This document shows, in pieces, positions 15,700-34,605 of a stretch of 64,000 bases of DNA. Each line of letters begins with the position of its first letter. The stretch's first letter is position 1. The position numbers and the translations under genes are program-made. The notes beneath the pieces were generated by a model. The model had not been told where the DNA came from. It searched no databases and was given only the letters and a program-made list of their open reading frames with translations. The stretch lies in contig JADFNB010000001.1 in the NCBI GenBank assembly GCA_022563595.1, forward strand, positions 65,416 to 129,415, given 5' to 3'. The DNA is from Gemmatimonadota bacterium (GTDB taxonomy: Bacteria > Gemmatimonadota > Gemmatimonadetes > Gemmatimonadales > GWC2-71-9).

Positions 15700-17156
15700 G
15701 CCGCAGGCGACCCCAACGCGTCGAGCACGATAACACGCTCGTCGAACGGGTGTTTCTCTGTCCCGAAGATCTGGTATGTCTCGTGGCCTTTCCCCGCCAG
15801 GAGCAAGCAGTCGCCCGGCGCCAGCATCGTGAGGGCACGATGGATGGCGTCCTGGCGATCCAGGATACGAAGATGTGGGACTTCGGCCATTCCCGCCGCG
15901 ATGTCGTCGAGGATACGTTCTGGGTCCTCGGTGCGAGGATTGTCCGCGGTCAGGATCACGACATCAGCCTCGCTCGCGGCGATCTTCCCCATCACCGCGC
16001 GTTTGCCCCGGTCTCGGTCTCCTCCGCAGCCGAACAGCACGATCAACCGCGCTGCGGTCACCCGCCGGAGGGTGCGGAGAACCCGCAGCATGGCGTCGGG
16101 CGTATGCGCGTAGTCGCGCAGAACCGTGTAGCGCTCCGACACGAGCCGTTCCATCCGACCCGGGACCTGCGGCGCGTCACGCAACGCACCCGCCACGGCC
16201 TCCGGTTCACCGCCTAGACCCCACGCCGCCGCCGCCGCCGCGAGAGCGTTGCTCACGTTGAACTCGCCGAGGAGCGGCAGCACTGTGCGCGTCTCGTAGG
16301 TCTCGAACCGAATTGTGAGCGCGCTGCCGGTGGCGTCCGCCTCCACCGCGACCGCCCGCACCGTGGCGTCCCGGTGGACGCCGTAGGAGATGCGTCGCAC
16401 CCGGTCGCGCGACGGGAGCGCCTCCCATGCCGGATCGTCGGCGTTGATGACCTCGATGCCGTCATCTTCGATCTGGTCGGAGAGGAGCGCCTTGGCTGCC
16501 AGGTAGGCGTCGAGCTCGCCGTGATAATCGAGGTGCTCGTGTGTCAGGTTGGTATAGACGCCCGCCTGGAACGAAAGCTCGGCGGTGCGGCGCTGGTGGA
16601 GCGCGTGCGATGAGATCTCCATCACGACCGTCCGCACGCCACGATCGCGCAGCGCGGCGAGTGTAGCCTGCAGCTCGACGGGGCCGGGCGTCGTGAGCCC
16701 GGTGGCGTCGGGCAGGCGTTCTCCGGCCCCGCCCACCACCCCAAGGGTTCCCAACGCCGCCACGTCGCCCGCCGCGTTCATCAGATGGCGGGTCAGACTC
16801 ACGGTCGTCGACTTCCCGTTGGTGCCGGTGACACCGACGAGCCGGAGCGCGTCACCGGGCCGGTCGTACCATGTGGCGGCCGCAACCGCCGCCGCGATCC
16901 GGCTGTCCCGCACGACCACTTGGGGAATGGCCGCCTCGACCACTCGGGTGACCAGCGCAGCCACCGCACCGCGGGCAGCGGCGTCGGCCACGTAGTCATG
17001 ACCGTCGGCGACCGTACCTTGGACGGCGCAAAACAGGACCGCACCGTCAACGCGCCGCGAGTCGTCGACCACACCGGCGATCTCGGGTGCCGCGTCGGGG
17101 GCGCGGACCAGCTCGCCGCGCGCATCCAGCGCGTCGGCTATGCGTCGCAACTCCAT
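15696..17156 (-). CDS. murE: UDP-MurNAc-L-Ala-D-Glu--2,6-diaminopimelate ligase
   Basis: VTGTNGKSTT P-loop. The ADNPRTEDP (DNPR) motif is characteristic of meso-DAP-adding MurE. Confidence 0.95.
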   Translation of the reverse strand: MELRRIADALDARGELVRAPDAAPEIAGVVDDSRRVDGAVLFCAVQGTVADGHDYVADAAARGAVAALVTRVVEAAIPQVVVRDSRIAAAVAAATWYDRPGDALRLVGVTGTNGKSTTVSLTRHLMNAAGDVAALGTLGVVGGAGERLPDATGLTTPGPVELQATLAALRDRGVRTVVMEISSHALHQRRTAELSFQAGVYTNLTHEHLDYHGELDAYLAAKALLSDQIEDDGIEVINADDPAWEALPSRDRVRRISYGVHRDATVRAVAVEADATGSALTIRFETYETRTVLPLLGEFNVSNALAAAAAAWGLGGEPEAVAGALRDAPQVPGRMERLVSERYTVLRDYAHTPDAMLRVLRTLRRVTAARLIVLFGCGGDRDRGKRAVMGKIAASEADVVILTADNPRTEDPERILDDIAAGMAEVPHLRILDRQDAIHRALTMLAPGDCLLLAGKGHETYQIFGTEKHPFDERVIVLDALGSPAA

Positions 17157-19093
17157 CAGAGTGACCCCGCCCGCGCGCAGAATAGCGTCACCATCCCGCC
17201 CGGCTCCACCGAATCTCCCGCCACCGGACGTGAGCGCACCACGATGTCCCCCACGACCTCGACCCGTGAGTTCAGCCCGGCCTTGTGCAGCCGGCGGACC
17301 GCCTCACGCAGGTTCAATCCGGTGATGTCGGGCACGAGGCGGGGGCCGCGCACGGGCCGCGCGGAGGTGTCCGGCCAGGCCACCACGAACGGAACGGTGC
17401 CGGCATCCACCGGCACGACCGGGATCGGGAGCGGAGGGATCCCGCGCGCCAGGCGGCTCCGGTCGAGCGCTGCCGTTTGCGCGGCGAGTACCTGCTCGAG
17501 AACCGCGCGGGTGAGGGGGGCCGCGGTCAATGTAGCGTAGGTCCCGCGCGGGTTCTCCAGCTTCACGATCATGACCAGCTGGGGATCGTCCGCGGGAAAG
17601 AGCGACGCGAACACCGCGATGTGCGAACCCGGGACGTAACCACCCGGACCGGCGACCCGGGCCGTTCCCGTCTTGCCTGCGACCTCATAGGTGCTGAGCG
17701 CCGCGCTGGCGCCGGTTCCGCCGCGTGCCGTGGCGGAGCGGAGCATCGCCCGCAAGCGTCGGGCGATCTCCGGTGTCACTACCCGACGCACCGGTTCCGG
17801 ACGGTGCGAGTAGGTCACCGAGCCGTCCGCACGACGGATCTCGCGCACCAAGGTAGGGCGGAGGAGAATCCCGTCATTCGCGATCGCCGCATACGCGAGA
17901 GCGAGCTGCAGCGGGGTCACCGCGATCTCGTATCCGATGGCCAGTGCGGCCGCCGTCGTGCCACTCCATTTACGGGGCCGCCTGAGAATGCCCCGGGATT
18001 CGGCGGGATACTCGATACCGGTCGGGGAGCCGAAACCCATGTCACGCAGCATACCGAATTGTTCCACCGGGCGGAGCCGGGAGGCGAACTTCACCATTGC
18101 GATGTTGCTCGAGAACCTGATCGCCTGATCGAGCGTTATCCACGCAACGTCCAGTTCGTGATCGTCTACGAGCGTGCGGTGCGGCAGCTCCCAACGCCCG
18201 CCCTCGCCGTATACCGTATCGGTGGCCACGACCCGGTCATGGACCAGCAACGCCGCCGCGGCGAAGATCTTCGCCGTCGACCCGGGCTCGAACACCGTGG
18301 TAAACGCGCTCGCCGGGGCAGATCCGTCGGACCGGCGGGATGCGACGGCCAGTACCTCACCAGACTCCGGCGCGAGCACGACGACGTCTCCGCCATCGGC
18401 GCCAAAACGGTCGACGGCCTCCGCCAGCGCGTTCTCCACGATCTCCTGTATGCTCATGTCGAGCGTGAGCTGGATGTCGTGACCGCCGACGGGGAACGCG
18501 CTCAACCGTGACGGCGATTCGTATACCCGGCCGCGGCCATCCCGAATCACGACGGCGCGCCCCGGGGTCCCCGCCAAGAGCGAATCGAACACCCGCTCGA
18601 TGCCACCCGCCGGCCGGCCGGCCGCCGGAGGACGACCGAGTACGGAGCGCGCGAAGTCCGGGTCGGGATAGAACCGCGTGAAGACCGGCGACAGGTGGAC
18701 CCCGCGCAGCCGGCGTAGCGGGTGCACCTGCGCGGAGCTGAAGGGACCGTCGAAGTACGCCCACCGCCTGCGGAGCGCGCGCTGCACCTCAGGCTCCGAG
18801 AGCCCCAGTTGCGATCCGATCAGCCGCGCGGCGGCGGCGGGATTTCGCAGCTCGTTGGGCGCGAGCCCGACGTGGAAGCTCTCCTGCGTGGTCGCGAGCG
18901 GCACACCGTTCCGATCGTACAGTACACCGCGGCGCGCGGGAAGGACGACGGTTTCGGTCCGCTGGCTGTCGGCGAGCGCCGCATAATGGCTGCCCCGGAC
19001 GAGCTGTACTTGGGCGGCCCGGATCACGAGGACGGCGATCCCGATCGCGAACGCGATTCCCACTGCCGTCAATCGGACCTCGGGCTTGGCCAT
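17156..19093 (-). CDS. ftsI: Class B penicillin-binding protein FtsI (PBP3) with a C-terminal PASTA domain
   Basis: Transpeptidase motifs STAK (EPGSTAKIF), SSN and KTGTA. The last ~60 aa (VPDITGLNLREAVRRLHKAGL...GDIVVRSRP..G) look like a PASTA domain. Confidence 0.93.
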   Translation of the reverse strand: MAKPEVRLTAVGIAFAIGIAVLVIRAAQVQLVRGSHYAALADSQRTETVVLPARRGVLYDRNGVPLATTQESFHVGLAPNELRNPAAAARLIGSQLGLSEPEVQRALRRRWAYFDGPFSSAQVHPLRRLRGVHLSPVFTRFYPDPDFARSVLGRPPAAGRPAGGIERVFDSLLAGTPGRAVVIRDGRGRVYESPSRLSAFPVGGHDIQLTLDMSIQEIVENALAEAVDRFGADGGDVVVLAPESGEVLAVASRRSDGSAPASAFTTVFEPGSTAKIFAAAALLVHDRVVATDTVYGEGGRWELPHRTLVDDHELDVAWITLDQAIRFSSNIAMVKFASRLRPVEQFGMLRDMGFGSPTGIEYPAESRGILRRPRKWSGTTAAALAIGYEIAVTPLQLALAYAAIANDGILLRPTLVREIRRADGSVTYSHRPEPVRRVVTPEIARRLRAMLRSATARGGTGASAALSTYEVAGKTGTARVAGPGGYVPGSHIAVFASLFPADDPQLVMIVKLENPRGTYATLTAAPLTRAVLEQVLAAQTAALDRSRLARGIPPLPIPVVPVDAGTVPFVVAWPDTSARPVRGPRLVPDITGLNLREAVRRLHKAGLNSRVEVVGDIVVRSRPVAGDSVEPGGMVTLFCARAGSL

Positions 19094-19096
19094 CGT

Positions 19097-19384
19097 TCAG
19101 CGCATCTCCGGCGCAGGTACCTGCAGAATGACGATCTCTGTGTCGGCGGGCAAGCGCAGCCCCAAAGACTCGGCCCGTGGGATCAGGATCGCGCGGCTCC
19201 CGCCCTCCCGGATGCGTCGCAGGAGAACGGCCTTTTCGGCTTCCGCGGCGGACCGTTCCGTGCGCACTTCCACCAGATCGACGGCCGCCACGAGCGCCGA
19301 GGTCTGTCGCGTGTTCACCCAGACGAGCACGCCGAGCAGGAACGCCAGCCAGACGGCGAACCAGTAACGGCCCTTAGCTGCCAT
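19097..19384 (-). CDS. ftsL: FtsL-like cell division protein
   Basis: 95-aa single-TM protein (WFAVWLAFLLGVLVWV) followed by a short coiled-coil-like region. Canonical position between rsmH and ftsI. Confidence 0.7.
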   Translation of the reverse strand: MAAKGRYWFAVWLAFLLGVLVWVNTRQTSALVAAVDLVEVRTERSAAEAEKAVLLRRIREGGSRAILIPRAESLGLRLPADTEIVILQVPAPEMR

Positions 19385-20285
19385 GAGTCCGCTCGAACAC
19401 CCTGAGCTTGGCTGAGCGCGCGCGCGGGTTGGCGGCGATCTCGTCCGCGCTGGGGAGGATCGGCCGTCGTGGCGTGAGGGTGCCGAGCGGTGCGCCGCGA
19501 CACGTACAGATAGGCTGGCCCGGAGGGCAGATACACGAACGCGCCCATTCCCTAAACGCGTGCTTTACAATGCGATCCTCGCCCGAATGGTAGGTGATCG
19601 CAGCGAGCTTGCCGCCCGGAGTGAGCGCGTCCCGCAGGACGGGCAGAGCGGTTTCAAGTTCGTCCAGCTCCCGGTTGACGGCGATCCGTACGGCCTGGAA
19701 CAGGCGGGCAAACACGGACGGGCCGGCCGTCGGACCGAGCGCCCGTCGGATGGCGTTGACCAGATCGTCGCTCACGGTCAGGGGCTTTCGTGTGCGACGC
19801 TCGACGATCGTGCGGGCGAGTCGCGCCGCGCGCCGCTCGTCGCCATAGGTGCGAAAGATGTGCGCGATTTCGTCCTGTGGCGCGCTGTTCAGCAGATCGG
19901 CGGCGTTCGCTCCGCGGTTCGACATGCGCATGTCGAGCGGCACGCCGGGACGAAACGAGAACCCGCGCGCATCGGCATCCAACTGCCGGGAGGATACGCC
20001 AAGGTCCAACAGCACCAGGTCCGGAGCGAATCGCACGATCTCCCCGATAACTCCGGCCGATCCAAAGCTCCCTTCCATCCAGCTCACCGAATCACCCAAA
20101 CGCGCCCGGCTTGCGGCCAACGCTTCCGCGTCGCGATCGACGGCGAGAACCTCCGCCCCGGCCGCCCGCAACAGGACAGCGTGTCCGCCGCCTCCCACGG
20201 TCGCGTCTACCGCCCGCAGTCGGCCGCGCGCAAGCACGGCCACGGCATCGGCGAGCACGGGAGTGTGGTAGGCCGTGGTACTCAC
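19374..20285 (-). CDS. rsmH: 16S rRNA (cytosine1402-N4)-methyltransferase RsmH (MraW)
   Basis: HTPVL, DATVGGGGH, DLGVSS.Q and ITYHSGEDR, the typical RsmH motifs. Confidence 0.95.
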   Translation of the reverse strand: MSTTAYHTPVLADAVAVLARGRLRAVDATVGGGGHAVLLRAAGAEVLAVDRDAEALAASRARLGDSVSWMEGSFGSAGVIGEIVRFAPDLVLLDLGVSSRQLDADARGFSFRPGVPLDMRMSNRGANAADLLNSAPQDEIAHIFRTYGDERRAARLARTIVERRTRKPLTVSDDLVNAIRRALGPTAGPSVFARLFQAVRIAVNRELDELETALPVLRDALTPGGKLAAITYHSGEDRIVKHAFREWARSCICPPGQPICTCRGAPLGTLTPRRPILPSADEIAANPRARSAKLRVFERTHGS

Positions 20286-20359
20286 ATCCGTAAAGAAAGC
20301 GGCCCCGCGCGTTTGGCAAGCGGGGCCGTTGATTGTGCGACAACCGAGTTGTCGCTGAG

Positions 20360-20433
20360 CGGGGCTGACGGGATTCGAACCCGCGACCTCCGGTGTGACA
20401 GACCGGCACTCTAACCAGCTGAGCTACAGCCCC
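20360..20433 (-). tRNA. tRNA-Asp (anticodon GTC)
   Basis: Minus-strand read GGGGCTGTAGCTCAGCTGGTTAGAGTGCCGGTCTGTCACACCGGAGGTCGCGGGTTCGAATCCCGTCAGCCCCG. It folds as a cloverleaf with a 7-bp acceptor stem, anticodon stem CCGGT/ACCGG, loop CTGTCAC and a GGTTCGAATCC T-loop. CCA is not encoded. Confidence 0.9.
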
Positions 20434-20489
20434 CGATACGGCTAACCGTTGAAGCTAGAGCCCAGCGGCGTCACTTTCAAGCGGGCGGT

Positions 20490-22250
20490 TCACGGACACT
20501 CGAACGCCGGCTTGTAGGTCTTGACCGCCGTCTCGTAGTGGCCGATGTACTCCAGGATCTGTGTCGCCGTTTGCTCGCTGACCGACCGGCCCAGCTCCAT
20601 CGCCCGATTCGCCCGGTCGATCAGGTCGATCTCCTTGTCCACCATCTCGCATGTCTCGCTCTCGCGGACCTCGAGGTCGAGTTCCGTAACCCAGAAGAAG
20701 TATGCGAGCGCCAGGAAGAAATTGGCCGGCGCGGTAAGGCTACCGCGCAGGTCGTGCGCCAGCGCCTGCTCCAAAAAGTGGGCGGCGAGCGGGAGATGCG
20801 CCATGAGCCTCAGCTGCGCGATCCTGGAGCCCGGGTTGTAATAGAGCGCGGCGAGGTTCATCGAGGTCGCCGTATCGCTCGTCTGCGCCGCGACCAGCTG
20901 GAGCAGCGTGTCGGCCTTCCACAGCCGTGCCGTATCGAGCGGCACGGCCGTGTCGACCACCAGAGAGCTGTCGAGCAGCAACTGCACGGCCGCCAGCGCG
21001 CTCGAGACCTGGCTCGAGTCGAGCATGAGAATCCGGTCATACGCAGCTAGCGCTCCGTCATGCTCGCTGGCTGCCTTGAGCGCGGCAGCCCGCGCCCGCC
21101 ACAACGAGATCGAGTTGGGGAGATGCTCAACCGCCTCCCCCGACCACCGCAGCATAGCCGCGATGTCCTCGATCGACTGTGCCACGCCAAACACACGCGC
21201 GTAGAAGATCGAGTCGCCGATCAATGAGGAATCTACCTCGTATTCTGCGCCCAGCGCGTCGAGGGCACACTCCCATAGCTCGCCTTCGACGCACGCGCGC
21301 GCCTTGTACTGGAGTGTCAGCAGATCCAGCGGGTTCCGGTCGAGCGCGTACTGGAGGATCTCCACCGCTTCCTCATGCCGTCCCTGTTGCATGCGCGCGA
21401 CCGCCACTCCGTGCCGCAGCTTGATGTTATTGAGCTCCGCCCGGAGCTGCGACGCGAACGCGTCCACACCCTTCGTCGTGTCACCGGCATCGAGATAGCG
21501 GCGTCCGAGCATCTCCCACGCCCGCCCGTTGAGCGAATCGCCGCGCACCGCCCGCTCGAGAGCGAAGATCAGCGAATCGTTCGGCTGCTGCTGCACCTCA
21601 AAGAGCAGGGCCAGGCACAGCGCCGCAGACGGGTGGTTGGGATTGATCTCGAACGCCCGCTTCACCCGATCACGGGCCCCGCGGAAGTCGCTGCGACCGC
21701 GCCGCTCGTCACACTCACGCGCATACCCGGCTGCTTTGACCTGGTCGTCGAGGGCATCGGCCACGTCACGAGCGATGTTCCGCGCCGACCGGTCGCCGCG
21801 GGATACAACCACTGTCCAGCCGGACAGGCCCGAGCCGGCCGCATCGACCAGACGCAATGTTACCTGGACACTGTCACCCGTGCGTTCCACCCAACCCACG
21901 ATGTAGCCCCGCGCCTGCAGAAACCGCGCAAGCGGGCCGGCGTTCGCGGCCGGCAGTGGCTTGTCGCATTCGAATCCCGAGGCCTCGAGTGCCTCGCAGA
22001 TCGTCTCGCCCGGGATGATCCGCATCTTGAACCGGAACTTCGATTCCATGCGGCGGCGAATCTCGTTGCCAAGCTCGATGGCGAACGCCGTATCGACGGC
22101 GCCCACCGGAATGGGAGGCAACACCAGCACGCGTTCGTTCGACCGGCGGACGGCATTCTGAGCGTGAATCGCTCCTGGCGTTGCCGCCGCCATAGTAATC
22201 GAGGCGAACCACAGCAGGCGCATTCGCCTGATCGAGCTGGGTATCTGCAC
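20490..22250 (-). CDS. Secreted TPR-repeat protein
   Basis: 586-aa ORF with an N-terminal signal peptide (LLWFASITMAAATPGAIHAQ) and helical-repeat composition downstream. No catalytic motif recognised. Confidence 0.7.
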   Translation of the reverse strand: MQIPSSIRRMRLLWFASITMAAATPGAIHAQNAVRRSNERVLVLPPIPVGAVDTAFAIELGNEIRRRMESKFRFKMRIIPGETICEALEASGFECDKPLPAANAGPLARFLQARGYIVGWVERTGDSVQVTLRLVDAAGSGLSGWTVVVSRGDRSARNIARDVADALDDQVKAAGYARECDERRGRSDFRGARDRVKRAFEINPNHPSAALCLALLFEVQQQPNDSLIFALERAVRGDSLNGRAWEMLGRRYLDAGDTTKGVDAFASQLRAELNNIKLRHGVAVARMQQGRHEEAVEILQYALDRNPLDLLTLQYKARACVEGELWECALDALGAEYEVDSSLIGDSIFYARVFGVAQSIEDIAAMLRWSGEAVEHLPNSISLWRARAAALKAASEHDGALAAYDRILMLDSSQVSSALAAVQLLLDSSLVVDTAVPLDTARLWKADTLLQLVAAQTSDTATSMNLAALYYNPGSRIAQLRLMAHLPLAAHFLEQALAHDLRGSLTAPANFFLALAYFFWVTELDLEVRESETCEMVDKEIDLIDRANRAMELGRSVSEQTATQILEYIGHYETAVKTYKPAFECP

Positions 22251-22600: not shown

Positions 22601-23512
22601 TCAAGCAGGGTTTTGGGGCTCCTCGGGCGGGATCACCCACCCCTCGTCCAGCAACGCTTTCCGATCCCGGTCCCTGCGGCGGCGGCGTGCCCAGACCACA
22701 CCAACGACTACAGCCGTCACGCTCCAGAACAGCGCGAACGACGTAAAGATCCGCAACCACCCGTATCGCGCGCGGATGTCGCGGTGCCACATCGCCTCCA
22801 GCTGATCCAGCGTGACGAGGTGGGTGCGCCGTACCGCCCGCTCGAAGCTGCCTGTCGCGCCGGCGTTGGCGATCAGCGGTCCGAGCCCTCGCTCTCGTCC
22901 CAATCGCTCCAAGAACAGCACCGCCGCCGTCGCGAGCGCGTACGCAGCCCGGGCGTGCGTCGGGCCGCTTCGCAGTTCCGCGTTGAGGCGTCCGAAAGAT
23001 GGGATGTCACCCGTCATCAGCGCCCAGTTCAACCCCAGCGCGTCGAGCCGTCCCCATTCCTGCGCCGCCCGGGCCGCATACCCCTCGGCGAACCATAGAG
23101 GCAGGCGCGCGGCCGCGCGATGGAGCGCCAGATGGGCGAGCTCGTGCGCGAGGGTACCGAACGGATCTCCGGCGAGCATGATCACTACCGTGTTGGACCT
23201 GGGGAAAGCCGCACCACCGCTCCACGACGGCAGGCGACCGCGGGTGACGGAATCGAAGCGCTCCGCGGAGCGCGTCACGATGAGCCGTATCGGGGCCGAA
23301 TCGAGCGCGGGCATCCCGGGCCACGGACCCGCACGGTCGGCGAATTCGGCCAGGGCCGTGGCGGCCGCCTCGTCACCCTGCCAGTATACCGCCTCCACCC
23401 TGCCCACCCGAACGGTAGCGGGCTGCTGGAAGGAGAGGCCGACTGATACCGCGAAGATTACGAGCGAGGAGGCTCCTGCCCCTGGGCGGCCAGGTCGAGC
23501 GCCTCGCGGCAT
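22601..23512 (-). CDS. Putative zinc metallopeptidase (HExxH) with a C-terminal TM helix
   Basis: LAHELAHLALH is an HExxH motif and FAEGYA lies about 20 residues downstream (gluzincin-like). C-terminal helix FALFWSVTAVVVGVVW. The start is uncertain: ATG at 23510-23512 was chosen, and the track ORF extends to 23560. Confidence 0.6.
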   Translation of the reverse strand: MPRGARPGRPGAGASSLVIFAVSVGLSFQQPATVRVGRVEAVYWQGDEAAATALAEFADRAGPWPGMPALDSAPIRLIVTRSAERFDSVTRGRLPSWSGGAAFPRSNTVVIMLAGDPFGTLAHELAHLALHRAAARLPLWFAEGYAARAAQEWGRLDALGLNWALMTGDIPSFGRLNAELRSGPTHARAAYALATAAVLFLERLGRERGLGPLIANAGATGSFERAVRRTHLVTLDQLEAMWHRDIRARYGWLRIFTSFALFWSVTAVVVGVVWARRRRRDRDRKALLDEGWVIPPEEPQNPA

Positions 23513-24321
23513 TTCTTGCCCCAGGGATTGAACTTGTTGGTTTCGAACCCTTTCAGCCACGTTGCCTTGGCAGCATCCCGGTCACCCGCGCGCCAGTGCG
23601 AGCGACCGAGTTCGTAGTACGCCTCGATGAGATTCGGTCCGAGCTGCAAAGCCTTCTGGAAAAACGTCTGCGCATCCTCGTACATCTCACGCTCGAAATA
23701 CACGAGCCCGAGGTAATAGTGCGCGTAGAGTGTCGCCTTCTTGTCGTTGTCGAGCCGGATTGCTTTGGAGAGGTGCTCGATCGCCTCGCCGAATATCTGT
23801 TTCTTGAGACAGACGTATCCGACATTGATCCGCGCCAGCGAGTTGGCTGGCTCTTTCATGAGCACCTTCTGGAAGGCCCCGAGTGCGTTGTCGTAGTCCT
23901 CGTGTTTCATCTGGGCCCAGCCGAGCAGCGACTCTGCCTGCACGTCGCCCGGCGAGTACTGGAGCGCCGTAGACAGCGCCTGGATGGCGCCTTCATAGTC
24001 TCCCAACGAGATGAGATTCCAACCTTTCTCTATCAGGGTCGAAGCGTCGATGTGGCTGGCGTGCAGCGCTGGCATCTGGCCCGTGAACTGCGGCGCCTGA
24101 TCTCCTATCTGGCTTTCCCGCAGTTCCTTGTATTTGTCGACCAGGACGCGGATGTCTTCCTTCAGTGCCTGCAGATCTGTGATCGACTCGTCGACGATCT
24201 TGAACAGCGCGATGATCTCCCGCTTGACCGCTTCGCGTTGACTATTCGACTTCGCTTCGTCGAGACGACGTGAGATCGACGAGTAGCTGGCGCGCAACGG
24301 CGCCACGGCTGCATCACTCAT
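23458..24321 (-). CDS. TPR-repeat protein with an N-terminal coiled-coil
   Basis: 287 aa with repeated TPR-like units (GDYEGAIQALSTALQYSPGD, EDYDNALGAFQKVLMKEPAN, QIFGEAIEHLSKAIRLDND, MYEDAQTFFQKALQLGPN). Confidence 0.8.
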   Translation of the reverse strand: MSDAAVAPLRASYSSISRRLDEAKSNSQREAVKREIIALFKIVDESITDLQALKEDIRVLVDKYKELRESQIGDQAPQFTGQMPALHASHIDASTLIEKGWNLISLGDYEGAIQALSTALQYSPGDVQAESLLGWAQMKHEDYDNALGAFQKVLMKEPANSLARINVGYVCLKKQIFGEAIEHLSKAIRLDNDKKATLYAHYYLGLVYFEREMYEDAQTFFQKALQLGPNLIEAYYELGRSHWRAGDRDAAKATWLKGFETNKFNPWGKKCREALDLAAQGQEPPRS

Positions 24322-24810
24322 GTCCCGCCCCCACCATCAAGTCCTCGAGGGTCACCCGCTCGGCGGACGACAAGAGCCGCGAGACCGCGAGGATGACAAT
24401 CGTCCTACCACCGACATTCAGAATCCCGCTCATGAACTCCGCCGCCAGCTCACGCACTACCCCCGTGTTGGATCGCCGCCTGGGGCATCCCATAGATAAC
24501 CGCCGTCTCCCGATCCTGCGCGAACCCCGCCCCACCGGCATCGCGAATGGCGCTCAGTCCTGCGGCGCCGTCCCGTCCCATGCCCGTCCATACGACTCCG
24601 ACCGCGTGGGGGCCGAACAGCTCGGCCACCGAACGAAACAGTGGATCTAGGGACGGACGCCCCACGCCGGGGCACGCCGGGTGAGCCGAAGGCAAGGGCC
24701 GTCGAACCCCATGTCCACCAGCAAATGATAATCGCCGGGTGCGACGTACGCCGTATCGGCCAGCAGGGGCGCCCTGCCAACTGGCAGTATACAGCGCCGT
24801 CGCGCGCCGC
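24314..24810 (-). pseudogene. cheB: CheB methylesterase remnant: only the C-terminal ~110 residues, split over three reading frames
   Basis: My minus-strand translation reads, in frame A, ..[35 protein letters not shown] then TAG (24647-24649). Frame B reads [69 protein letters not shown] then a stop (24450). Frame C reads [15 protein letters not shown]... These match the conserved CheB blocks (APGD.H, RPS.D.LF.S, TGMG.DG, GMP..A). The N-terminal part of the catalytic domain and any REC domain are absent. Confidence 0.8.
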
Positions 24811-24960
24811 TCACAGCCCCGGAAGCACGCTCCTAGCCAGCGCATCCCAGGTCTCCCTATTGCGAAAGAACTTGGTGACGTTGATCGTCAGCGTATCCAG
24901 CAGCCGCTCATACTCCGCCGTGTCGCATGCGAGGATCCTGGAGCGGCGGACAGGGCGGGA
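24811..24960 (-). pseudogene. cheR: CheR methyltransferase fragment (about 35 conserved residues, no start codon, premature stop)
   Basis: Minus-strand translation ..[41 protein letters not shown] then TGA (24811-24813). This matches the CheR N-domain/MTase junction motif (T.N.T.FFR....f..L). The SAM-binding domain is missing. Confidence 0.7.
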
Positions 24961-24973
24961 TCCTGCTCGTCCG

Positions 24974-26593
24974 TCAAGTGAGTGCGCTCAGCGTTTCGAG
25001 GTTGGTCTTGACCAGTTCGTGACCCGGGTTCAGCTCCAGAGCGTGTTTCCAGCAGGTGGCGGCCTGCTCGCGGTCGCCGCGCTTGTAGGCGATGTTGCCG
25101 AGCTTGAAGTAGATGTCGTCCCCGAGCGTGGGGTCGAGCTTCACCGCCCGTTGATATGCCGCAGCCGCGTCGTCATACTGGGTCGTGCGGTACAAGATAT
25201 CACCGAGATTCTTCGACAGTTGTGGTACCGACGGGTCGTTCGCGAGCGTGGACCGCAGGATCTCCTCCGCCTGCTCTAGCTCGCCCAGGATCTCCAACAG
25301 CGCCGCCAGGTTGTTGCACAGGATGGGATGCCCGGGATGCTGCTCGAGACCGTCACGCAGCAGCACCTCGGCGGCAGCGTATTCATCTTGCGCGGCGGCG
25401 GTGAGCGCCCTGGCCCAGTACCACAGTGGGGGAAGCTGGTTCTCGCCCGCGATCTCACATGCACGGTCCAACCGGCCTTCGGCCACCCGGTACTCCCCGC
25501 GCTGGAGGGCGACGACACCCCATCCGGTCATGATACGGTGGTCCCGCCGCGCGCGGGTCGCCGCATCACCGTATGCGGTATCCGCGTGATCGAACTGACC
25601 GAGTTGTTCGTAGGCGAGCGCCAGGTTGTGCAGCACGCTCGGTTTGGCCCCGACCCGCTCAGCCGCGGTCCGCAGGAACCCCATGGCGTCCTGCCATCGT
25701 GCGTGCTTCAGCGCCACGATACCGAGGTAGAAGAACGCCTCCCCGTCATCGGGCCGGAGTTCCGCTACCCGGCGGAATTCTCGCGCCGCCTCATCGAGCA
25801 TCCCGGTCTTGTAGAACACCACGCCAAGGTTGTGGTGTTCCTGGATGCGGACATCGTTCACGTCCGCCGGTCGCGGCGCCTGGCTCCTGCCAGTGCGGTG
25901 TGCGAATCCCGCAGAGATGAGCCCGTAGAGCGCTTTGCCCACCTCGAACTCCACGATGCCGGCGTCCTCGATCACACTTGCGACATCACGGACCCCATCC
26001 AGCAACGGGAGAATCTGCCGCTGTTGCTCGGTCAGCTCGATGTCGGAGGATTCGAGCCGCTCGCGGTCCACCGAGAAGACCAGGTCGAACGAAGTGATCT
26101 TCTTTTCGATCAGGCTCCACTCGTCGATGCGACGTGCGCCTTCGAGCAGCAGCGATTGAGGGCTGATCGAGACCAGGAATTCCTCCCGCTCGGGATACAC
26201 GTCGCTCTCGAAGCTGAACGTGCCCTGCGTCCAGGTGAAGAGGAAATAGACCGCTTCCTCTATCTGAACGCGTATGAAATGTTCGAGGTCCTCACGCGTT
26301 ATCGCATTGTGCGAGATGAGGATCTCGCCCAGCCGGCGGTCGCGCTCGTGAGCCTGCTCCTCGACCGCTGCGTTCAGCTGCTCCGGCGTGATCTTCTTAT
26401 GTTTGACGAGTATGTCACCGAGTCGATCCCGCCGGTTCACGATGGACGCGTACGAGATCCGCCCCTTGTCGAAGTAGATGTACCCAAAGTTGTTCCGGTC
26501 GGCGACCGAGAGGCAGCCGGGTTTCTGCCCCAACGCGAGGAGTTGGAACACGTCCGGCAACGACGCTTCCTTGAGGCTCCCCTTGATCGCCAT
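24974..26593 (-). CDS. PATAN (DUF4388) domain protein with a tandem MshEN/T2SSE_N-like motif and C-terminal TPRs
   Basis: Start chosen at ATG 26591-26593 (ATGA overlap with the upstream stop), giving [43 protein letters not shown] (DUF4388 signature). This is followed by RLGDILVKHKKITPEQLNAAVEEQ and RLGEILISHNAITREDLEHFIRVQ, and then by several TPR units. Confidence 0.85.
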   Translation of the reverse strand: MAIKGSLKEASLPDVFQLLALGQKPGCLSVADRNNFGYIYFDKGRISYASIVNRRDRLGDILVKHKKITPEQLNAAVEEQAHERDRRLGEILISHNAITREDLEHFIRVQIEEAVYFLFTWTQGTFSFESDVYPEREEFLVSISPQSLLLEGARRIDEWSLIEKKITSFDLVFSVDRERLESSDIELTEQQRQILPLLDGVRDVASVIEDAGIVEFEVGKALYGLISAGFAHRTGRSQAPRPADVNDVRIQEHHNLGVVFYKTGMLDEAAREFRRVAELRPDDGEAFFYLGIVALKHARWQDAMGFLRTAAERVGAKPSVLHNLALAYEQLGQFDHADTAYGDAATRARRDHRIMTGWGVVALQRGEYRVAEGRLDRACEIAGENQLPPLWYWARALTAAAQDEYAAAEVLLRDGLEQHPGHPILCNNLAALLEILGELEQAEEILRSTLANDPSVPQLSKNLGDILYRTTQYDDAAAAYQRAVKLDPTLGDDIYFKLGNIAYKRGDREQAATCWKHALELNPGHELVKTNLETLSALT

Positions 26594-28548
26594 CAGGTCA
26601 GCTCCTCGATGATGCGGTTTGCCGCGTCTGGCCAACGCCAGATCATCTTCTCCCGGCTCTGCACACCCCCGGAGGGTGTCACGACGATCCCGCTGGTGCG
26701 AAGTCGAGCCGACGAGCGCCGCGGCCGCTCTGCCACTCCTTCCAGTAGCTCGCGCGCGAACCCGACCGATACCGCTACTCCCTGTGATTCAGCGGAGTCG
26801 GTCACGCGTTGCACCGTGGCAATCACGGAGCGGAGTGACTCGGCCTGACGGTCGGCCAGATACGCGGCGAGGTCGTCATCAACGTCACCCACGCGGGCGC
26901 TCAACTCGCGCTTCACCAGCGCCAGGCGAAGGTCGCGGTCAGGCGGCGCAAGATGGGTAACGAGCCCACCCTCCATGCGCGATATGAGCCGCTCATTGAC
27001 GCCGTCGAGTTCTCGCGGCGGCAGGTTGACCGTAAAGATCACCTGGAACTGTTTATCGACGAGCACGTTGAACAGGTTAAACAACTCCTCCTGCGAGCGT
27101 TCCTTGCCTGCCAGCAGATGCACGTCGTCCAAGAGCAGCGCGGAGACCCTGCGGTAGCGCGACCTCCAGGCGTCGAGCCGGTCCCGCTCTATGGCCTGAA
27201 CCAACTCGTCGAGGAAGTCCTGAGCCGACAGGCACGCCACGAGGGCGTCGGGCCCGGCCGAGAGGGCGTGGCCGATCGCGTGCAGGAGATGCGTCTTCCC
27301 AACACCGGTCGGGCCGACGATCACGAAGGGGTTGTAGAGCGTTCCCGGATTCTCTGCGACCGCGCGCGCCGACGTGAGCGCGAGTCGATTGGACTCGGCC
27401 TGCACGAAATCATCGAACGCCCAGGCGGCAGACGGGCCCGGCGGCGGCGCTAGTCCGGCTTTGGCCAAGCGGACCAGCTCCTCCGCGTCGGCTAGCCGGT
27501 CCGGATCGTGGAACGCGGCATCGCCCGCACACGCGGCGTCGAGAGCCGTCATCTCCCGCTCGAGTTCCTTCAGGCGCGTGACGTCGAGCCCAAACTGGCG
27601 CACGACCACGTCCGCGCCCACCGGTGTCTGCTGTTCGAGGAGCTTCGCTATGCGGGCCGCACGGTACCCGTGCCCCTCCCAATACACGACCGCTTCATGA
27701 AGGCGCCTCCGCCACGCCTCCATCTGCTGTGACAGTGCGGTCCCGACCGATAACAGGAACTGGTCGAACTCGTCGGGGGCTGATGTAGCTTCGGCGGCCG
27801 GTTCCCCCACCGCCACCACCTTGGCGGACTCCTTCAGACCCAGCAACGTGCACGCCCCCTCCGCCGTGAGTGCCGCTTCGTTCACCGCCTGGAACGCTAT
27901 CAACCGGTTGAGGAGTCCCAGTAGCTCGCGCACGTTGCGCGACTCGTACTCGGCCACCGATGCCAGCACCGCCTGCTCGAAATTCACGCCACGCTCCTCG
28001 GCCTTGCGCTTGAGAATGGCAAGCCGGGTCTCGAACTCGGGCTGGTCGATATCGACCACGAGCCCGCCCGCGAAGCGTGAGGTAAGCCGCTCGTCGAGGT
28101 CCCCGATCCCGGTCGGGGGCCGGTCGCTCGAGAGGACGATCTGCTTTTGGGATTCCAGAAACGCCGTGATGAACCGCAGCAACTCCGACTGCGTCTCGAG
28201 TCGGTGGGCCAGAAACTGCACGTCGTCCAGCAACACGATATCGACCGAGTTGAACCTGTTGCGGAACGCGTCGCTCTGTCCCGCGGCGACGGCGGCGTGA
28301 TATGCTTCGACGAACTCCTCGAGGGTCAGATACTCGACGGCCAGTTGCGGCGAGATGGTCTGGGCAAGATGACCCAACGCCATCATCAGGTGGGTCTTGC
28401 CCATTCCGCTGGCGCTGTAGATGAAGAGCGGGTCGTACGCGGTTCCGGGGCTCTCGGCCACGGTGCGCGCCGCGGCGACCGCGAGCCGGTTGCTCGGCCC
28501 GACGACGAACGAGTCGAAGGTGAAGCGCGGGTTCAGCTCCCGGGTCAC
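26593..28548 (-). CDS. Tandem DnaA-type AAA+ protein (two DnaA domain-III modules, no domain IV)
   Basis: Module 1 (res ~6-235): [59 protein letters not shown]. Module 2 (res ~376-605): [48 protein letters not shown] linker of about 140 aa separates them. The C-terminal tail lacks the DnaA domain IV HTH. The GTG start overlaps the mglA stop (GTGA). Confidence 0.85.
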
Positions 28549-29144
28549 GTCGGACTTTCCTCGCTCAGCTTGCGGAGCACCCGCTCGGAGATGGCCTTCA
28601 ACGTCTCGAAGACGCCCCGGCCGGTCACCGCCGCCGCCGGGAAGCTCGGGACGCCGCGGAAGTTGAGCTGCTCGTCCATCTCCTCGTGTGTGAGCACCAG
28701 GTCGCGCGGCAGGTCCTGCTTGTTGTACTGCAGCACCAATGGCACCGTGCGCACATCGATGCCCTGCTCCAACAGGTTGGCTTGGAGGTTCTGCAGGCTC
28801 TCGATGTTCTCATCGAGCTGCCGGGCCTGACTATCGCTCACGAACACCACACCGTCCGCACCCTGCAGCACCAGCTTGCGGGTCGCGTTGTAGTAGACCT
28901 GGCCGGGAACCGTGTAGAGCTGGAACCGCGTCGTGAACCCGGAGATCGTGCCCAGCTCGATCGGAAGAAAATCGAAAAACAGGGTCCGACCCGTATGCGT
29001 CGCGAGCGAAACCATTCGGCCACGACGTTCTTCCGGCACCCGTGTGTAGACGTACTGCAGATTCGTCGTCTTCCCCGACCGTCCGGGGCCGTAGTAGACG
29101 ATCTTGCACGTGATCTCGCGGGTCCTGAAGTTGACGAGCGACAT
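28545..29144 (-). CDS. mglA: Ras-like polarity GTPase MglA
   Basis: [32 protein letters not shown] (intrinsic Arg finger), [12 protein letters not shown] (catalytic Gln) and QYNKQDLP. It is alignable along its whole length to Myxococcus MglA as I remember it. Confidence 0.93.
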
Positions 29145-29151
29145 GTGCCCC

Positions 29152-29619
29152 TTACTGGAAAAGGGTCGCGAGACTCTCGTTCAGATCCCGCTCAAAGTCC
29201 GCCGCCAGGACAGCTCGTTTGGGTGCCAGAGCCGGCGCTGCCGCGGACAGCTCCGCCACCAGCTCTTCGAAGAATAACTGTACCAGCCCGACCGAGGACT
29301 CGGCACCGTAGACCACCAAGACCAGCAGTCTGCCGCGGGGCGAGTCGAAACCCGCGAGGAACACGCCGTGCCGGTCCCCTTGGTGACTCAAGGCCCGGAA
29401 CTCCCGTCCCTGGAGCATGCGCGCGAGTTCACTGGTGGACGCGACGATCCCCGCGCCCAGCACGGCTGCCGACATGACGTCCACCGCTCGCGTGAACCCA
29501 TGCTGCGCCATGACCTGACCCGATGGAGTCATCACTAGGGTCAGCCGCGCACCCGCCTCACTGACGAATCGCTCGAGCGGGCCCAGGATCCAGGGCTCTA
29601 CCGCGCGGGTCGGCTTCAC
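29152..29619 (-). CDS. mglB: Roadblock/LC7 protein, MglB-like (putative MglA GAP)
   Basis: 155 aa immediately upstream of mglA (mglB-mglA order as in Myxococcus). Roadblock-like core ..[16 protein letters not shown]...[35 protein letters not shown]. The acidic C-terminal tail [14 protein letters not shown] resembles the MglB tail. GTG start. Confidence 0.78.
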
Positions 29620-29966
29620 GCAATCCCCTCAACGGCCCGCAGCATCTCGAGACGCGCGAGCCCCACGTTGACATCGGCTTCCCCTACCACGACGAGTACC
29701 AAGCCGTCGCCCGCCGGTACAGTGAGCAAGACTCCTTCCTCGGCCTGCAGGTGCACGAAGTAGGGCGTTCCGACACCGCTCGCCTCCGCGGCTCTATGGA
29801 GCCGCTTGACGAGCGATGCCGCCAGCGCCGCAACCGCGTTGCCGCGCACCCCCTCCATCAACGATTCCGCCACCACGATTCCGTCATCCGCCGCGACGAG
29901 CATCGCGCCGTGGACACCGCGCACCCGCGTGATGGTGTCCAGCAGCGCCACGAACCGGAAGTTCAC
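29616..29966 (-). CDS. Roadblock/LC7 domain protein (second paralog)
   Basis: Start chosen at GTG 29964-29966 (GTGA overlap with the upstream stop), giving VNFRFVALLDTITRVRGVHGAMLVAADDGIVVAESL...FVHLQAEEGVLLTVPAGDGLVLVVVGEADVNVGLARLEM, a typical Roadblock/LC7 fold pattern. The longer track ORF (to 30293) overlaps the upstream gene. Confidence 0.75.
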   Translation of the reverse strand: MNFRFVALLDTITRVRGVHGAMLVAADDGIVVAESLMEGVRGNAVAALAASLVKRLHRAAEASGVGTPYFVHLQAEEGVLLTVPAGDGLVLVVVGEADVNVGLARLEMLRAVEGIA

Positions 29967-31926: not shown

Positions 31927-34605
31927 CTATGGGGCCTCTATTTGGAAGATATGCTTGAGATCGAGCGCCGTACGCGCGTGTCGGCGTGCTTTCTGCGCAT
32001 ACGATCCAGCCGGATCCAGCTGGACGACCCGTTCCCAGGCACGGACGGCGTCGCCGTAGCGGCGCAGGCGGGCCAACGCCACACCCATATAGAAGTGCGC
32101 GGCGATGTGGTCCGGATCATGTGCGCTGATGCGTCGGAACGCCTGGAGCGCCTGCTCGATCCGGCCGTCGTCTACCAGAACCTGCGCGAGCGCGAGCAGG
32201 GCATCGAGGTCGGACGGATCGGCATCCAAGATATCCACCAGGAGGTTAGCCGCCTCGCGAAACCGGGCCTTCCTGCGGTAGACCCGCGCGAGGGGGATCG
32301 CCGCCTCTGCGTAGGTGGGCAGCGCTTCCAGCGCCGCTCTGTATGCCGTCTCGGCCATCACCCAGTCCTCACGCTGCTCGTACACCGTCCCCAGCGCTAC
32401 GCGCGCCTGGACCAATCGCGGATCGAGCTCCAACGCAGCCTCGTACGCTTCCCGGGCCGTGTCGAGATCGCCAGTACCCAGCGCGATGTCGCCTTCGAGT
32501 TTCGGGATGTCGGCCCGTTGCGGTGCGCGCCGCCGTGCGGCGCGCACCGCTTCCACGGCGCCGGCCGGGTCACCATTCAGGCGACGCACCTCGGCGGCGG
32601 CGAGCAGCACCTCAAGATCGTCCCGGCATTCCGAGACGAGTCGTTCCGCATCCTCGCGCGCGTCCGAGCCGCGCCCCAACGCAATCAAGGCGCGTACCTC
32701 GCCCAGCCTGGCGTCCACGCGCTCGGGCGCGCGCAGGCGTGCCTGAGCATAGCGCTCGCGCGCCTCACCGTGGAGTCCGCGCCGCGCGAAGATCTCGGCT
32801 GCCAGCACCAGCACCTCCAGTTCGTCCACACCCCGCGCCTCTGCCCGGTTGACCTCGGCCGCGGCCAGCTCCAGCAGCCCCTTGGAGAGATAGTCGCGCG
32901 CCAGCCCCAGTGGGTCTCCTCCCACCCGGGACGGACGGGGAATCGGGCGCTCGAGTTCGCGGACGATCTGGTCCAGCACCGCGGGATCGAATCGCAGGGC
33001 CTGCGACGTCAACTCCGCGGCAACGTCAGCGGAGATCTCCGGTATGACCGAGATCGTGGAGTCCTCGTACTGGAGATCGATGGCGAGCCGAAACTTCTGC
33101 GGCACGTAGTAGGGATCGAGCGTCTGGGCGCGGGTCACCGCGCGGAGCCCGCCGTCGTAGTCGCCCAAGGCCGACAGTGTGAAGCTCAGGTTGTAGTGCG
33201 CCTCCGCCGATCCCGGGTCGCTCTCCACTGCGCGGGCGAAGGCGTTGCGGGCGTCGCTGATGCGCCCCAGCTCATTGAGCACCAGGCCAATCCCGTTCCA
33301 CGCCGGGGCCGACAGCGGGTCGACATCGAGGACCCCTTGATACGCCTGTAGCGCGAGCTGCAGCCTGCCGAGCTGCGCCAACAGCAGCCCCAAGTTCAAG
33401 CGCGCAACGAGCAACGACGCATCCGCGCGCATCGTGTCGTGGAATGCCTCGATCGCGTCATCGTGTTTGCCCTGATGCGCCAACGTCACCGCGAGGTTGT
33501 TGCGCGCCAGCGCATATTCGGGCGTGATCTCGATCGCCTGTCCGTAGGAGGCGATCGCGTCGGCGGGATGCCCCAGCTGGTGGTACACGACACCTCGCTC
33601 GTTCCACAGCTTGGGTGAGCCCGGCGCCTCCCGCACGAGCGTCTCGTACAGTTCGAGCGCCGAGCTGTAGCTCCGCTTCAGCAGATGCACCTCCGCCATC
33701 GCCTGGAGCACGAGATGCCGGTCTTCCCCGCGCTCCAGGGCGAGGCGGTACTCGCGCAGCGCCTCGTTGTAGTATCCCTTCTGCCGGAACGCGAGCCCGA
33801 GGTTGTAGTTGGCCAGCACCTGCCCTGCGATTACCTCGGGTTCGTCGGGGATGCGCATCGGCTGGCTCTTGCGGTCACCCACGTATCGCTCGAGCGACAG
33901 GTTCGTCTGAGCCCGCGCGAACGTGGGATTCAGCCGGATCGCCCGCTTGCTGGCCTCGCGTGCCGCCTCGTGCCGTCGCAGATCGCCGTACACGAATGCC
34001 GCTAGGTAGTGGGCATCGGCGTTCTCGGGGCTCAGCTCGATCGCCCGCTCGAGCTCCCCGATGGCATCCGTATCGAGACCCCGATTGTAGAGTGTTTCGC
34101 CCAGGTAGAAATGCACGACGCTGCTCTCGGCATCCAGATCCCGCGCGCGCTCGAACCATGCCGTTGCCGCCTCGAGTCTGCCCCGTAGCTTTTCAGCCAA
34201 ACCCAGCTGGATGAGAGCCGCGAGATCGTTCGGCAGCCGCGCCACGATGACCTCGAACTCCTGTATGGCGTCGTCGTACTGCCCGACGGAGGCGTAAGCC
34301 CGTCCCAGCTCCCAGCGAGCTTCCCGGTCGTCGGGCGTGGCACGCAACCGCTCGGTGAGCTGGGTGACACGACGGTCGTAATAACCGGTTTCTTTGTAGG
34401 CGATTTCCAGGTTGCGCTGCGCGACCGACATCCTGGTATCGAGTTCGAGCGCTCGGGTGAACGAGGCGATCGCCTCGTCGATCATCCCTTTCTGGTAGTA
34501 GAGAACGCCGAGATTGTTGTGCGCTCCCGGATCCGACGGGTCGATCCGTCGAGCGAACGAGCGCAGGGCCGCGAGGTCTCGTTCCGACACCACCTCGATC
34601 GACAT
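31927..34605 (-). CDS. Large TPR-repeat protein (892 aa)
   Basis: TPR units run almost end to end (e.g. GMIDEAIASFTRALELD, GQYDDAIQEFEVIVARLPND, GYYNEALREYRLALERG, GKHDDAIEAFHDTMRAD). Only 1 nt separates it from the downstream gene. Confidence 0.85.
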   Translation of the reverse strand: MSIEVVSERDLAALRSFARRIDPSDPGAHNNLGVLYYQKGMIDEAIASFTRALELDTRMSVAQRNLEIAYKETGYYDRRVTQLTERLRATPDDREARWELGRAYASVGQYDDAIQEFEVIVARLPNDLAALIQLGLAEKLRGRLEAATAWFERARDLDAESSVVHFYLGETLYNRGLDTDAIGELERAIELSPENADAHYLAAFVYGDLRRHEAAREASKRAIRLNPTFARAQTNLSLERYVGDRKSQPMRIPDEPEVIAGQVLANYNLGLAFRQKGYYNEALREYRLALERGEDRHLVLQAMAEVHLLKRSYSSALELYETLVREAPGSPKLWNERGVVYHQLGHPADAIASYGQAIEITPEYALARNNLAVTLAHQGKHDDAIEAFHDTMRADASLLVARLNLGLLLAQLGRLQLALQAYQGVLDVDPLSAPAWNGIGLVLNELGRISDARNAFARAVESDPGSAEAHYNLSFTLSALGDYDGGLRAVTRAQTLDPYYVPQKFRLAIDLQYEDSTISVIPEISADVAAELTSQALRFDPAVLDQIVRELERPIPRPSRVGGDPLGLARDYLSKGLLELAAAEVNRAEARGVDELEVLVLAAEIFARRGLHGEARERYAQARLRAPERVDARLGEVRALIALGRGSDAREDAERLVSECRDDLEVLLAAAEVRRLNGDPAGAVEAVRAARRRAPQRADIPKLEGDIALGTGDLDTAREAYEAALELDPRLVQARVALGTVYEQREDWVMAETAYRAALEALPTYAEAAIPLARVYRRKARFREAANLLVDILDADPSDLDALLALAQVLVDDGRIEQALQAFRRISAHDPDHIAAHFYMGVALARLRRYGDAVRAWERVVQLDPAGSYAQKARRHARTALDLKHIFQIEAP

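Follow-up and report, generated by a model that had tools for sequence, protein, structure and literature searches.

To our knowledge, AAA+ domains of the DnaA type are known almost solely from DNA replication and transposition, in DnaA, Hda, DnaC/DnaI and IstB. Hda has just one such module, some 230-250 aa long, and carries its beta-clamp-binding motif at the N-terminus. Here we describe a protein of this family encoded in a 64,000-nucleotide stretch, called the window below, of a Gemmatimonadota contig. The protein, named 2xDnaA below, carries domain III of DnaA twice. Its family keeps the ATPase chemistry of DnaA, has dropped the domains that read DNA, and is tied by overlapping genes to a protein with PATAN and tetratricopeptide repeat (TPR) domains and cyclic di-GMP (c-di-GMP) motifs, and in one order also to the Ras-like polarity GTPase MglA. 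Architecture and context thus suggest signalling, not replication, for this member of the DnaA family of AAA+ proteins, whose inferred function should interest both the replication-initiator and the bacterial-polarity fields. If the inference is right, 2xDnaA would be the first reuse of an initiator ATPase as a signalling or polarity switch and a new component class for bacterial Ras-like polarity modules. It would also be a natural covalent "minimal dimer" for studying how the ATP site of DnaA is completed by the arginine finger of a neighbour.

Polarity modules built on MglA are the other point of comparison. In Myxococcus, the TPR protein SgmX is recruited by MglA-GTP and in turn delivers PilB to the pilus machine (PMC11580455). 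PATAN is an output domain that binds PilB1 and PilC in Synechocystis (bioRxiv 10.1101/2021.06.11.447907). A 2014 survey of prokaryotic small GTPases placed Gemmatimonadetes among the MglA group 1 lineages and recorded occasional PATAN neighbours of MglA. For Gemmatimonas aurantiaca GAU_1409 its supplement shows the neighbourhood "PATAN>MglA>-PATAN>", leaving the gene in the middle without a name or comment. In full-text literature searches, nothing was found that connects a DnaA-like ATPase with MglA, PATAN, MshEN, polarity or c-di-GMP. A first-pass annotation of this DNA, made by a model from the letters, had likewise known of no established role for a DnaA/Hda-like ATPase beside a Ras-like polarity GTPase.

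The window cluster resembles the Frz-MglA-SgmX-PilB wiring of Myxococcus. Like the MglA-MglB/SgmX system of Myxococcus xanthus, it has MglA, an MglB-like GTPase-activating protein, Roadblock paralogues and large TPR proteins, and its relatives add a Che pathway. The neighbourhood belongs with the MglA group 1 polarity modules, having an MglA orthologue and an adjacent Roadblock-type MglB. It differs in the DnaA-like ATPase itself, which is absent from the described modules of Myxococcus, Thermus and Bdellovibrio, and neither RomR nor RomX was recognised in the window cluster. The gene and the parts of its product are as follows.

26593..28548, minus strand: 2xDnaA gene (tandem DnaA-domain-III protein, 651 aa), GTG start and TGA stop
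27838..28536, minus strand: module 1, complete DnaA-type AAA+ domain (aa 5-237), placed by alignment to DnaA and a hidden Markov model (HMM) of the module
27427..27837, minus strand: linker (aa 238-374), placed by family conservation and an AlphaFold2 (AF2) model
26740..27426, minus strand: module 2, second DnaA-type AAA+ domain (aa 375-603), placed by alignment to DnaA and the module HMM
26596..26739, minus strand: C-terminal tail (aa 604-651), in the place of DnaA domain IV, placed by family conservation and the AF2 model

2xDnaA is a tandem DnaA-domain-III protein without a DNA-recognition domain. The first-pass annotation had read two full copies of domain III in one 651-aa protein, and a Pfam scan bears this out: Bac_DnaA matches in two stretches (E=6e-103), with no match to Bac_DnaA_C at E<=0.01. 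By the module HMM, the copies span aa 8-237 and 375-603, with 36% identity between them over 208 aa. Each carries the Walker A, Walker B and box VII motifs that had been listed for it (Walker A, SASGMGKT in module 1 and GPTGVGKT in module 2; Walker B, LLDD in both; box VII, RLTSRF and RLISRM). Alignments to the DnaA structures 8bv3 and 2z4r are gapless, and the initiator-specific insertion is intact in both modules (predicted helices 76-101 and 442-466). The AF2 model, built with 51 relatives, has a mean predicted local distance difference test (pLDDT) score of 83 and two confident AAA+ modules, and its best structural match is DnaA domain III, with a template modelling (TM) score of 0.95 and a root-mean-square deviation of 1.4 A.

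Both modules are DnaA-derived, because module 1 scores 206 bits and module 2, searched alone, 167 bits against domain III of B. subtilis DnaA, with only 50 bits for module 2 against Hda. An Hda origin of module 2 had been a candidate, as a full-length search listed Hda structures alone for it, but was rejected on those scores. Across both modules, Hda structures reach 46-50 bits, against 167-206 bits for DnaA. The likeness to DnaA thus extends to a true domain III in each module, with Walker A/B, box VII, sensor II and the initiator-specific helical insertion. The differences are as clear. 2xDnaA begins domain III at residue 5, with no domain I/II and no N-terminal extension, lacks the helix-turn-helix of domain IV, and has its domain III duplicated around a novel helical linker and followed by a novel tail. 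Its neighbours are signalling and polarity genes, not dnaN or oriC. The gene has a GC content at third codon positions of 0.82, matching the codon-position pattern of adjoining genes. 2xDnaA is a DnaA-derived, putative paralogue specific to Gemmatimonadota that, with neither domain I nor domain IV, has lost origin recognition.

The duplication has consequences for annotation. The model TIGR00362 scores 496.7 on 2xDnaA against a cut-off of 343.9, a score reached by summing the two domain III copies. This explains the wrong label "chromosomal replication initiator protein DnaA" that automatic pipelines assign and that stands on records of the Joint Genome Institute (JGI). Family members so mislabelled can mislead origin and dnaA calls in metagenome-assembled genomes (MAGs) of Gemmatimonadota. 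Named close relatives carry the label "DnaA/Hda family protein [Gemmatimonadales bacterium]". DnaC, DnaI and IstB belong to the same initiator AAA+ clade and are likewise ATP-dependent switches that load or regulate a partner, not unfoldases. 2xDnaA differs from them in having no helicase- or transposase-binding N-domain and no insertion sequence context; no transposase or helicase gene lies near it in the window. The scores against their models fall far under the cut-offs (NF038214, 103 against 200; DnaC, 26.7 against 357; DnaI, 40.7 against 228), and IstB_IS21 gives a weak match of 68 bits.

Which parts of the ATPase are kept says most about how it may work. Motif positions were assigned by alignment to DnaA, and conservation was counted in 119 close relatives, with P-loop residues also counted in a divergent set (n=47). 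In E. coli DnaA, the corresponding roles are those of Walker A K178, sensor I D269, box VII R281, the arginine finger R285 and sensor II R334. The module 1 ATP pocket is invariant: K51, T52, D108, D109, sensor I D142 and sensor II R207 are each present in 119/119. Its arginine finger, R158, is lost in about 60% of close relatives (48/119 have R, 44 have G, 24 have Q and 3 have A). This finger is dispensable, a further difference from DnaA. In module 2, box VII R520 and the arginine finger R524 are found in 119/119, and Walker A/B are kept in this clade. The DnaA-specific sensor I Asp is replaced there (N508). In most members of a Longimicrobiales-type sister clade, module 2 has no Walker A Lys (A, G, N or C instead), Walker B (H-G) or lid, and Arg stands at the finger position in 13/16 and at the position equivalent to R281 in 14/16. 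Judged by alignment, the near-universal elements are the module 1 ATP pocket and the module 2 arginine finger, from which we infer a single composite ATP site within one polypeptide, that is, an asymmetric pseudo-dimer.

The idea of an asymmetric pseudo-dimer was already in the first-pass annotation, where it was based on a missing sensor II in module 2 and a deviant P-loop in module 1. The idea survives on other grounds, namely the arginine fingers and the clade-specific loss of the module 2 ATP site. The literal NVRELEG is indeed absent from module 2, but its R573 aligns with the sensor II Arg of DnaA and is R in 94/119 and H in 25/119. The P-loop of module 1 does begin with Ser, but this is specific to a lineage (108/119 close relatives have S, whereas 24/47 in the divergent set have G), and it was rejected as the key asymmetry. 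The idea that MglA accompanies an intact ATP site in module 2 was also dropped; it is broken by the locus L016 (P0140), where both modules are intact and MglA is absent.

The linker of about 140 aa, called unique in the first-pass annotation, has no match to Pfam families and, searched alone, none to PDB sequences. AF2 predicts disorder at 240-257 and then a helical domain at 260-363; the conserved helical domain is delimited as 258-365. Motifs kept across the family are D259-E260-F261-x-x-F264-L265, W279 and W290...G294-Y295...R299, of which E260, F261, F264, W279, W290, G294, Y295 and R299 are invariant. The tail is predicted to be disordered (AF2 confidence is low from 606) yet is conserved, with the motif S619-G620 ... 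S631-x-E633-K634-x-x-W637-x-W639-P640 ... R645-x-x-E648 and an ending IEEL-x. We considered whether linker or tail could have decayed from a domain IV. Compared by HHalign with the C-termini of canonical DnaAs, they reach probabilities of 2-7% and match just the short helix at the domain III/IV junction, so the candidate was dropped and the short tail in place of domain IV, as originally described, stands. A clamp-binding motif in the linker was rejected as well: DQFLLS (aa 262-267) resembles QLxLxL, but its Q is not conserved and the family consensus is DEFxDFL. The N-terminus reads MTxELNPRF and leads directly into domain III, with no clamp-type motif conserved in the family consensus.

2xDnaA belongs to a family that is phylum-wide and under clear purifying selection. 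A word-indexed search found over 120 clusters of full-length proteins (640-662 aa, 55-76% identity), and an exhaustive search of 1.84 billion representatives extended the full-length family down to 34-35% identity. There are hundreds of full-length relatives, and all named members are uncultured Gemmatimonadota. A search seeded with a divergent member brought up a second large group, named Longimicrobiales or Gemmatimonadota. A contig scan with the window protein, run with over-specific patterns, gave one true relative and an acidobacterial locus with a partial match of single-module length, which is probably a canonical dnaA. In the module tree, the clade of first modules has a bootstrap of 73/100 and that of second modules 40/100. 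A first neighbour-joining tree had suggested that the two form separate clades. Because support in the module tree is weak, a single origin of the family is argued mainly from synteny and architecture.

The overlapping genes on either side of 2xDnaA, together with a third gene further along, are listed here.

28545..29144, minus strand: MglA small GTPase, 199 aa, whose stop overlaps the 2xDnaA start
24974..26593, minus strand: PATAN(DUF4388)-TPR protein, 539 aa, whose ATG overlaps the 2xDnaA stop
22601..23470, minus strand: peptidase-MA-like protein, HELAH motif, start approximate

Both junctions were verified as originally read: the GTG start of 2xDnaA overlaps the mglA stop (GTGA), and its stop overlaps the ATG of the PATAN-TPR gene by 1 nt (TGATG). 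The overlapping frames point to translational coupling of 2xDnaA with both mglA and PATAN-TPR, and to co-transcription with the latter. Twelve loci were compared. Seven are of the Gemmatimonadales type (the window, L001, L002, L003, L004, L006 and L007), and in all seven MglA lies directly upstream of 2xDnaA. The ATPases of L006 and L007 are merely 35% identical to that of the window, yet the gene order is the same. This order begins with ileS-dksA-lspA-rluD, cheY, cheA and cheC (the last two in some loci), a TPR protein of about 890 aa, PATAN-TPR, TPR-Roadblock, Roadblock, MglB and MglA. After 2xDnaA it continues with PATAN-TPR, cheR-cheD-cheB-cheW (in some loci), a TPR protein, the peptidase-MA-like protein, a 61-aa open reading frame (ORF), a TPR protein of about 590 aa and rsmH-ftsL-ftsI-murE.

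The other five loci (L010, L011, L014, L015 and L016), of the Longimicrobiales type or intermediate in form, have rluD directly before 2xDnaA and no MglA, MglB or Roadblock block. Wherever the contig continues, PATAN-TPR and then the peptidase-MA-like gene follow, usually with the same 1-nt overlap. PATAN-TPR is thus downstream in 11/11 readable loci (the window, L001, L002, L003, L004, L006, L007, L011, L014, L015 and L016), with a 1-nt overlap in most. The coupling to mglA singled out in the first-pass annotation therefore holds for the Gemmatimonadales-type family alone; MglA adjoins the ATPase in 7/12 loci overall, and 2xDnaA is not a constant component of MglA modules. The conserved core is the trio of 2xDnaA, PATAN-TPR and peptidase-MA-like protein, with PATAN-TPR as the invariant partner, and the MglA/Che block was either added or retained in a single order. 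Throughout the phylum the locus occupies the same chromosomal slot, between rluD and the dcw genes. In L014, on a Longimicrobiales-type contig of 4.46 Mb, a gas-vesicle cluster (gvpA-like, gvpK, gvpL/F and gvpG; 16727..21974) sits just downstream of the trio and is probably unrelated to it.

The invariant partner brings c-di-GMP into the picture. Its gene starts at ATG 26593, not at TTG 26635 as in the ORF list; the protein then has 539 aa, matching relatives in length, and its N-terminus is typical of PATAN. The helical insert of its PATAN domain contains two MshE-type 24-residue c-di-GMP motifs, RLGDILVKHKKITPEQLNAAVEEQ and RLGEILISHNAITREDLEHFIRVQ. The corresponding model, NF053729, scores 55.5 bits in the window protein (cut-off 38) and is above cut-off in the partner at 5/5 loci tested, which suggests that PATAN-TPR binds c-di-GMP, a prediction made from the motif. 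In this insert the protein recalls the PATAN regulators PatA and PixE/PixG and the MshEN receptors; it differs from the PATAN regulators in having TPRs in place of the receiver domain. In the third member of the trio, the zinc-binding motif HELAH is intact and a hydrophobic anchor near the C-terminus precedes RRRRR, features that suggest a membrane-tethered, metalloprotease-like component.

DnaA domain III also occurs in other unusual settings, found by Pfam scans of further matches from the exhaustive search. P0207 (738 aa) is a 2xDnaA protein with a C-terminal receiver domain, two proteins of 921 and 1876 aa on the contig L009 join MshEN to 2xDnaA, and the long TPR proteins P0217, P0237 and P0247 end in one domain III. 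The recurring partner domains of these forms (MshEN-type c-di-GMP motif, TPR and receiver) are of the kinds that surround the window gene. In the module tree, the other architectures group with canonical DnaAs and not with the 2xDnaA family, with weak support.

Their surroundings vary. At L008 (5692..12939), P0207 stands beside genes for Hpt, receiver, Hpt and receiver proteins, a PAS hybrid histidine kinase and a receiver-HD-GYP protein. The metagenome contig L009 (1738..16490) encodes a prepilin peptidase, the 921-aa MshEN-2xDnaA protein, an MshEN protein, a free DnaA-domain-III protein (246 aa), the 1876-aa MshEN-2xDnaA protein, a TonB_C protein and a PilB-type MshEN+T2SSE ATPase. L009 may be a second, independent link of DnaA-type ATPase modules to type IV pilus and c-di-GMP genes. 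A Gemmatimonadota MAG (L012, 2765..14057; also L013) has a separate tandem protein, P0153 (697 aa), whose two modules are both fully DnaA-like. It is encoded after a TPR protein of 867 aa and before three proteins without a family match (200, 729 and 563 aa), and two bactofilin genes are near. Finally, P0160 (673 aa) has two domain III copies and the DnaA C-terminal DNA-binding domain, with W and L at the finger position.

Drawing on the anatomy, the gene coupling and the domain fusions, we tentatively favour a role for 2xDnaA as a non-replicative, ATP-driven conformational switch or adaptor that would serve a complex of PATAN-TPR, c-di-GMP and, in Gemmatimonadales, the MglA polarity complex. 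ATP would bind the conserved module 1 pocket, and the module 2 arginine finger would complete the site from within the one chain, making the protein a closed, asymmetric pseudo-dimer instead of a filament of the DnaA kind. ATP binding and hydrolysis could alter the way in which the TPR/PATAN partner meets the helical linker and the C-terminal tail. PATAN-TPR would add c-di-GMP sensing and an output contact; if cyanobacterial PATAN domains are a guide, this contact could be with a type IV pilus motor or some other polar machine. The polar address of the complex in Gemmatimonadales might come from MglA-GTP, under the control of MglB, the Roadblock paralogues and the Che pathway via CheY.

Several observations weigh against this model. 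The AF2 model has a predicted TM score (pTM) of 0.47, which leaves the placement of the two modules relative to each other uncertain. A single composite site does not explain why the ATP site of module 2 is still complete in the main family, nor why the sister clade has a complete module 1 with its arginine finger kept in 16/16. Some members of the main family lack the module 2 finger (P0125, L; P0131, H; P0146, V; P0164, T). The segment corresponding to "GKERSQEE", which contacts single-stranded DNA (ssDNA), is recognisable in module 2 (K482 in 103/119, R484 in 84/119) and leaves room for DNA binding. The 64-kb window contains no genes for a pilus or other motility machine, and the output is a guess by analogy.

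An unlikely alternative is that 2xDnaA is a static scaffold, in which the nucleotide is structural or absent and the protein merely links TPR, PATAN and MglA proteins, with no cycle of ATP hydrolysis. The change of module 2 into a pseudo-module free of nucleotide in the sister clade, the many TPR partners in the cluster and a module 1 P-loop that starts with Ser and not Gly in this clade would all fit a protein of this sort. The pattern of conservation in the 119 relatives does not, as the invariant Walker A/B, sensor I Asp and sensor II Arg of module 1, together with the kept finger of module 2, are what is expected of a hydrolysing site.

2xDnaA could instead regulate initiation in the manner of Hda. 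The pseudo-dimer would dock on DnaA-ATP by way of the AAA+ interface, and its module 2 finger would trigger hydrolysis or cap oligomers, tying initiation to c-di-GMP, polarity or surface signals. With Hda and HdaA it shares membership of the DnaA family of AAA+ proteins, the lack of a DNA-binding domain and an arginine finger as the most important conserved element. Both modules are nearer to DnaA than to any other AAA+ family, the module 2 finger is invariant in close relatives, and the exposed ATP site of module 2 and the sister-clade finger of module 1 could serve contacts in a hetero-oligomer. The locus also lies between divIVA and the dcw cluster, but this proximity is shared synteny and provides no functional evidence. 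Unlike Hda, 2xDnaA has two modules in its 651 aa, each much nearer to DnaA, no conserved motif of the clamp-binding type, and an N-terminus that starts directly with domain III. The Hda model TIGR03420 scores 192.9, just under its cut-off of 194.8, and solely as the sum of two stretches; NF005982 and NF006571 are far under theirs. Coupling across the phylum is to PATAN-TPR and the peptidase-like protein, not to dnaA, dnaN or the clamp, and related DnaA-domain fusions occur in pilus and phosphorelay contexts. We therefore regard a regulator of this kind as improbable.

It is similarly doubtful that 2xDnaA is an ATP-dependent, non-specific binder of DNA or the nucleoid, using the chromosome as a matrix on which to position a PATAN/TPR/MglA complex, as ParA-type systems do or as IstB does on target DNA. 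The initiator-specific insertion is intact in both modules, and module 2 keeps the K-E-R-S segment, which we take to contact ssDNA in DnaA, with residue roles as in the A. aeolicus DnaA-ssDNA structure 3R8F, itself among the structure matches. The DnaA binding mode, however, needs a filament of many protomers, and both the loss of the module 1 finger and the loss of the module 2 ATP site in the sister clade speak against filaments. The basic residues are moderately conserved in module 2, the module 1 equivalent of E. coli R245 is Glu, and the protein has no domain IV or other DNA-binding domain. In a combined form, the pseudo-dimer would use the invariant arginine finger of module 2 and its open AAA+ faces to co-assemble with or cap DnaA-ATP, or would bind ssDNA of the origin, under the control of c-di-GMP, PATAN and MglA. 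We give this only a small chance; if true, it would be a direct molecular wire from polarity and surface signalling to the decision to start replication.

An artefact or a mobile or defence element (a chimera of dnaA fragments, an IstB-like helper or an anti-phage NTPase) is effectively refuted, since the weak IstB_IS21 match and generic PADLOC models for P-loop or TPR proteins (<=26 bits where the ATPase is concerned, with MglA and the peptidase-like protein matching nothing, and no specific defence-system model) stand against hundreds of independent full-length clusters from many samples, which also dispose of the assembly chimera raised at first as a possible refutation, and against IstB NCBIfam scores far under cut-off and a fixed rluD-dcw slot with no transposase nearby.

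The remaining genes of the window cluster all lie on the same strand as 2xDnaA.

23458..24321, minus strand: 287-aa TPR protein, between PATAN-TPR and the peptidase-MA-like gene
24450..24845, minus strand: cheB remnant, 131-aa ORF with a partial CheB_methylest domain (PF01339 positions 92-159 of 174, 88 bits)
29152..29619, minus strand: MglB-like Roadblock protein, 155 aa, best matches are MglB structures
29616..29966, minus strand: small Roadblock/LC7 protein, 116 aa, start set from relatives of 115-118 aa
29963..30793, minus strand: TPR + Roadblock fusion, 276 aa
30744..31925, minus strand: second PATAN-TPR protein, 393 aa, c-di-GMP motif just under cut-off (35.7 against 38 bits)
31927..34605, minus strand: all-TPR protein, 892 aa
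34867..35229, minus strand: CheY-like single-domain receiver, at the head of the cluster

The cheB remnant occupies the slot where relatives have cheR-cheD-cheB-cheW, and the window cluster is without the cheA and cheC found upstream in relatives. Because cheB is partial and cheA and cheC are absent, the Che pathway of the cluster seems to be decaying in this genome, with CheY, MglA and the ATPase kept. The window MglA is genuine: it aligns over its full length with MglA of M. xanthus (256 bits) and scores 224 bits against that of T. thermophilus. Both Roadblock/LC7 proteins other than MglB, the free 116-aa form and the 276-aa TPR fusion, are kept in all MglA-linked loci, and these extra paralogues recall the MglB/MglC pair of Myxococcus.

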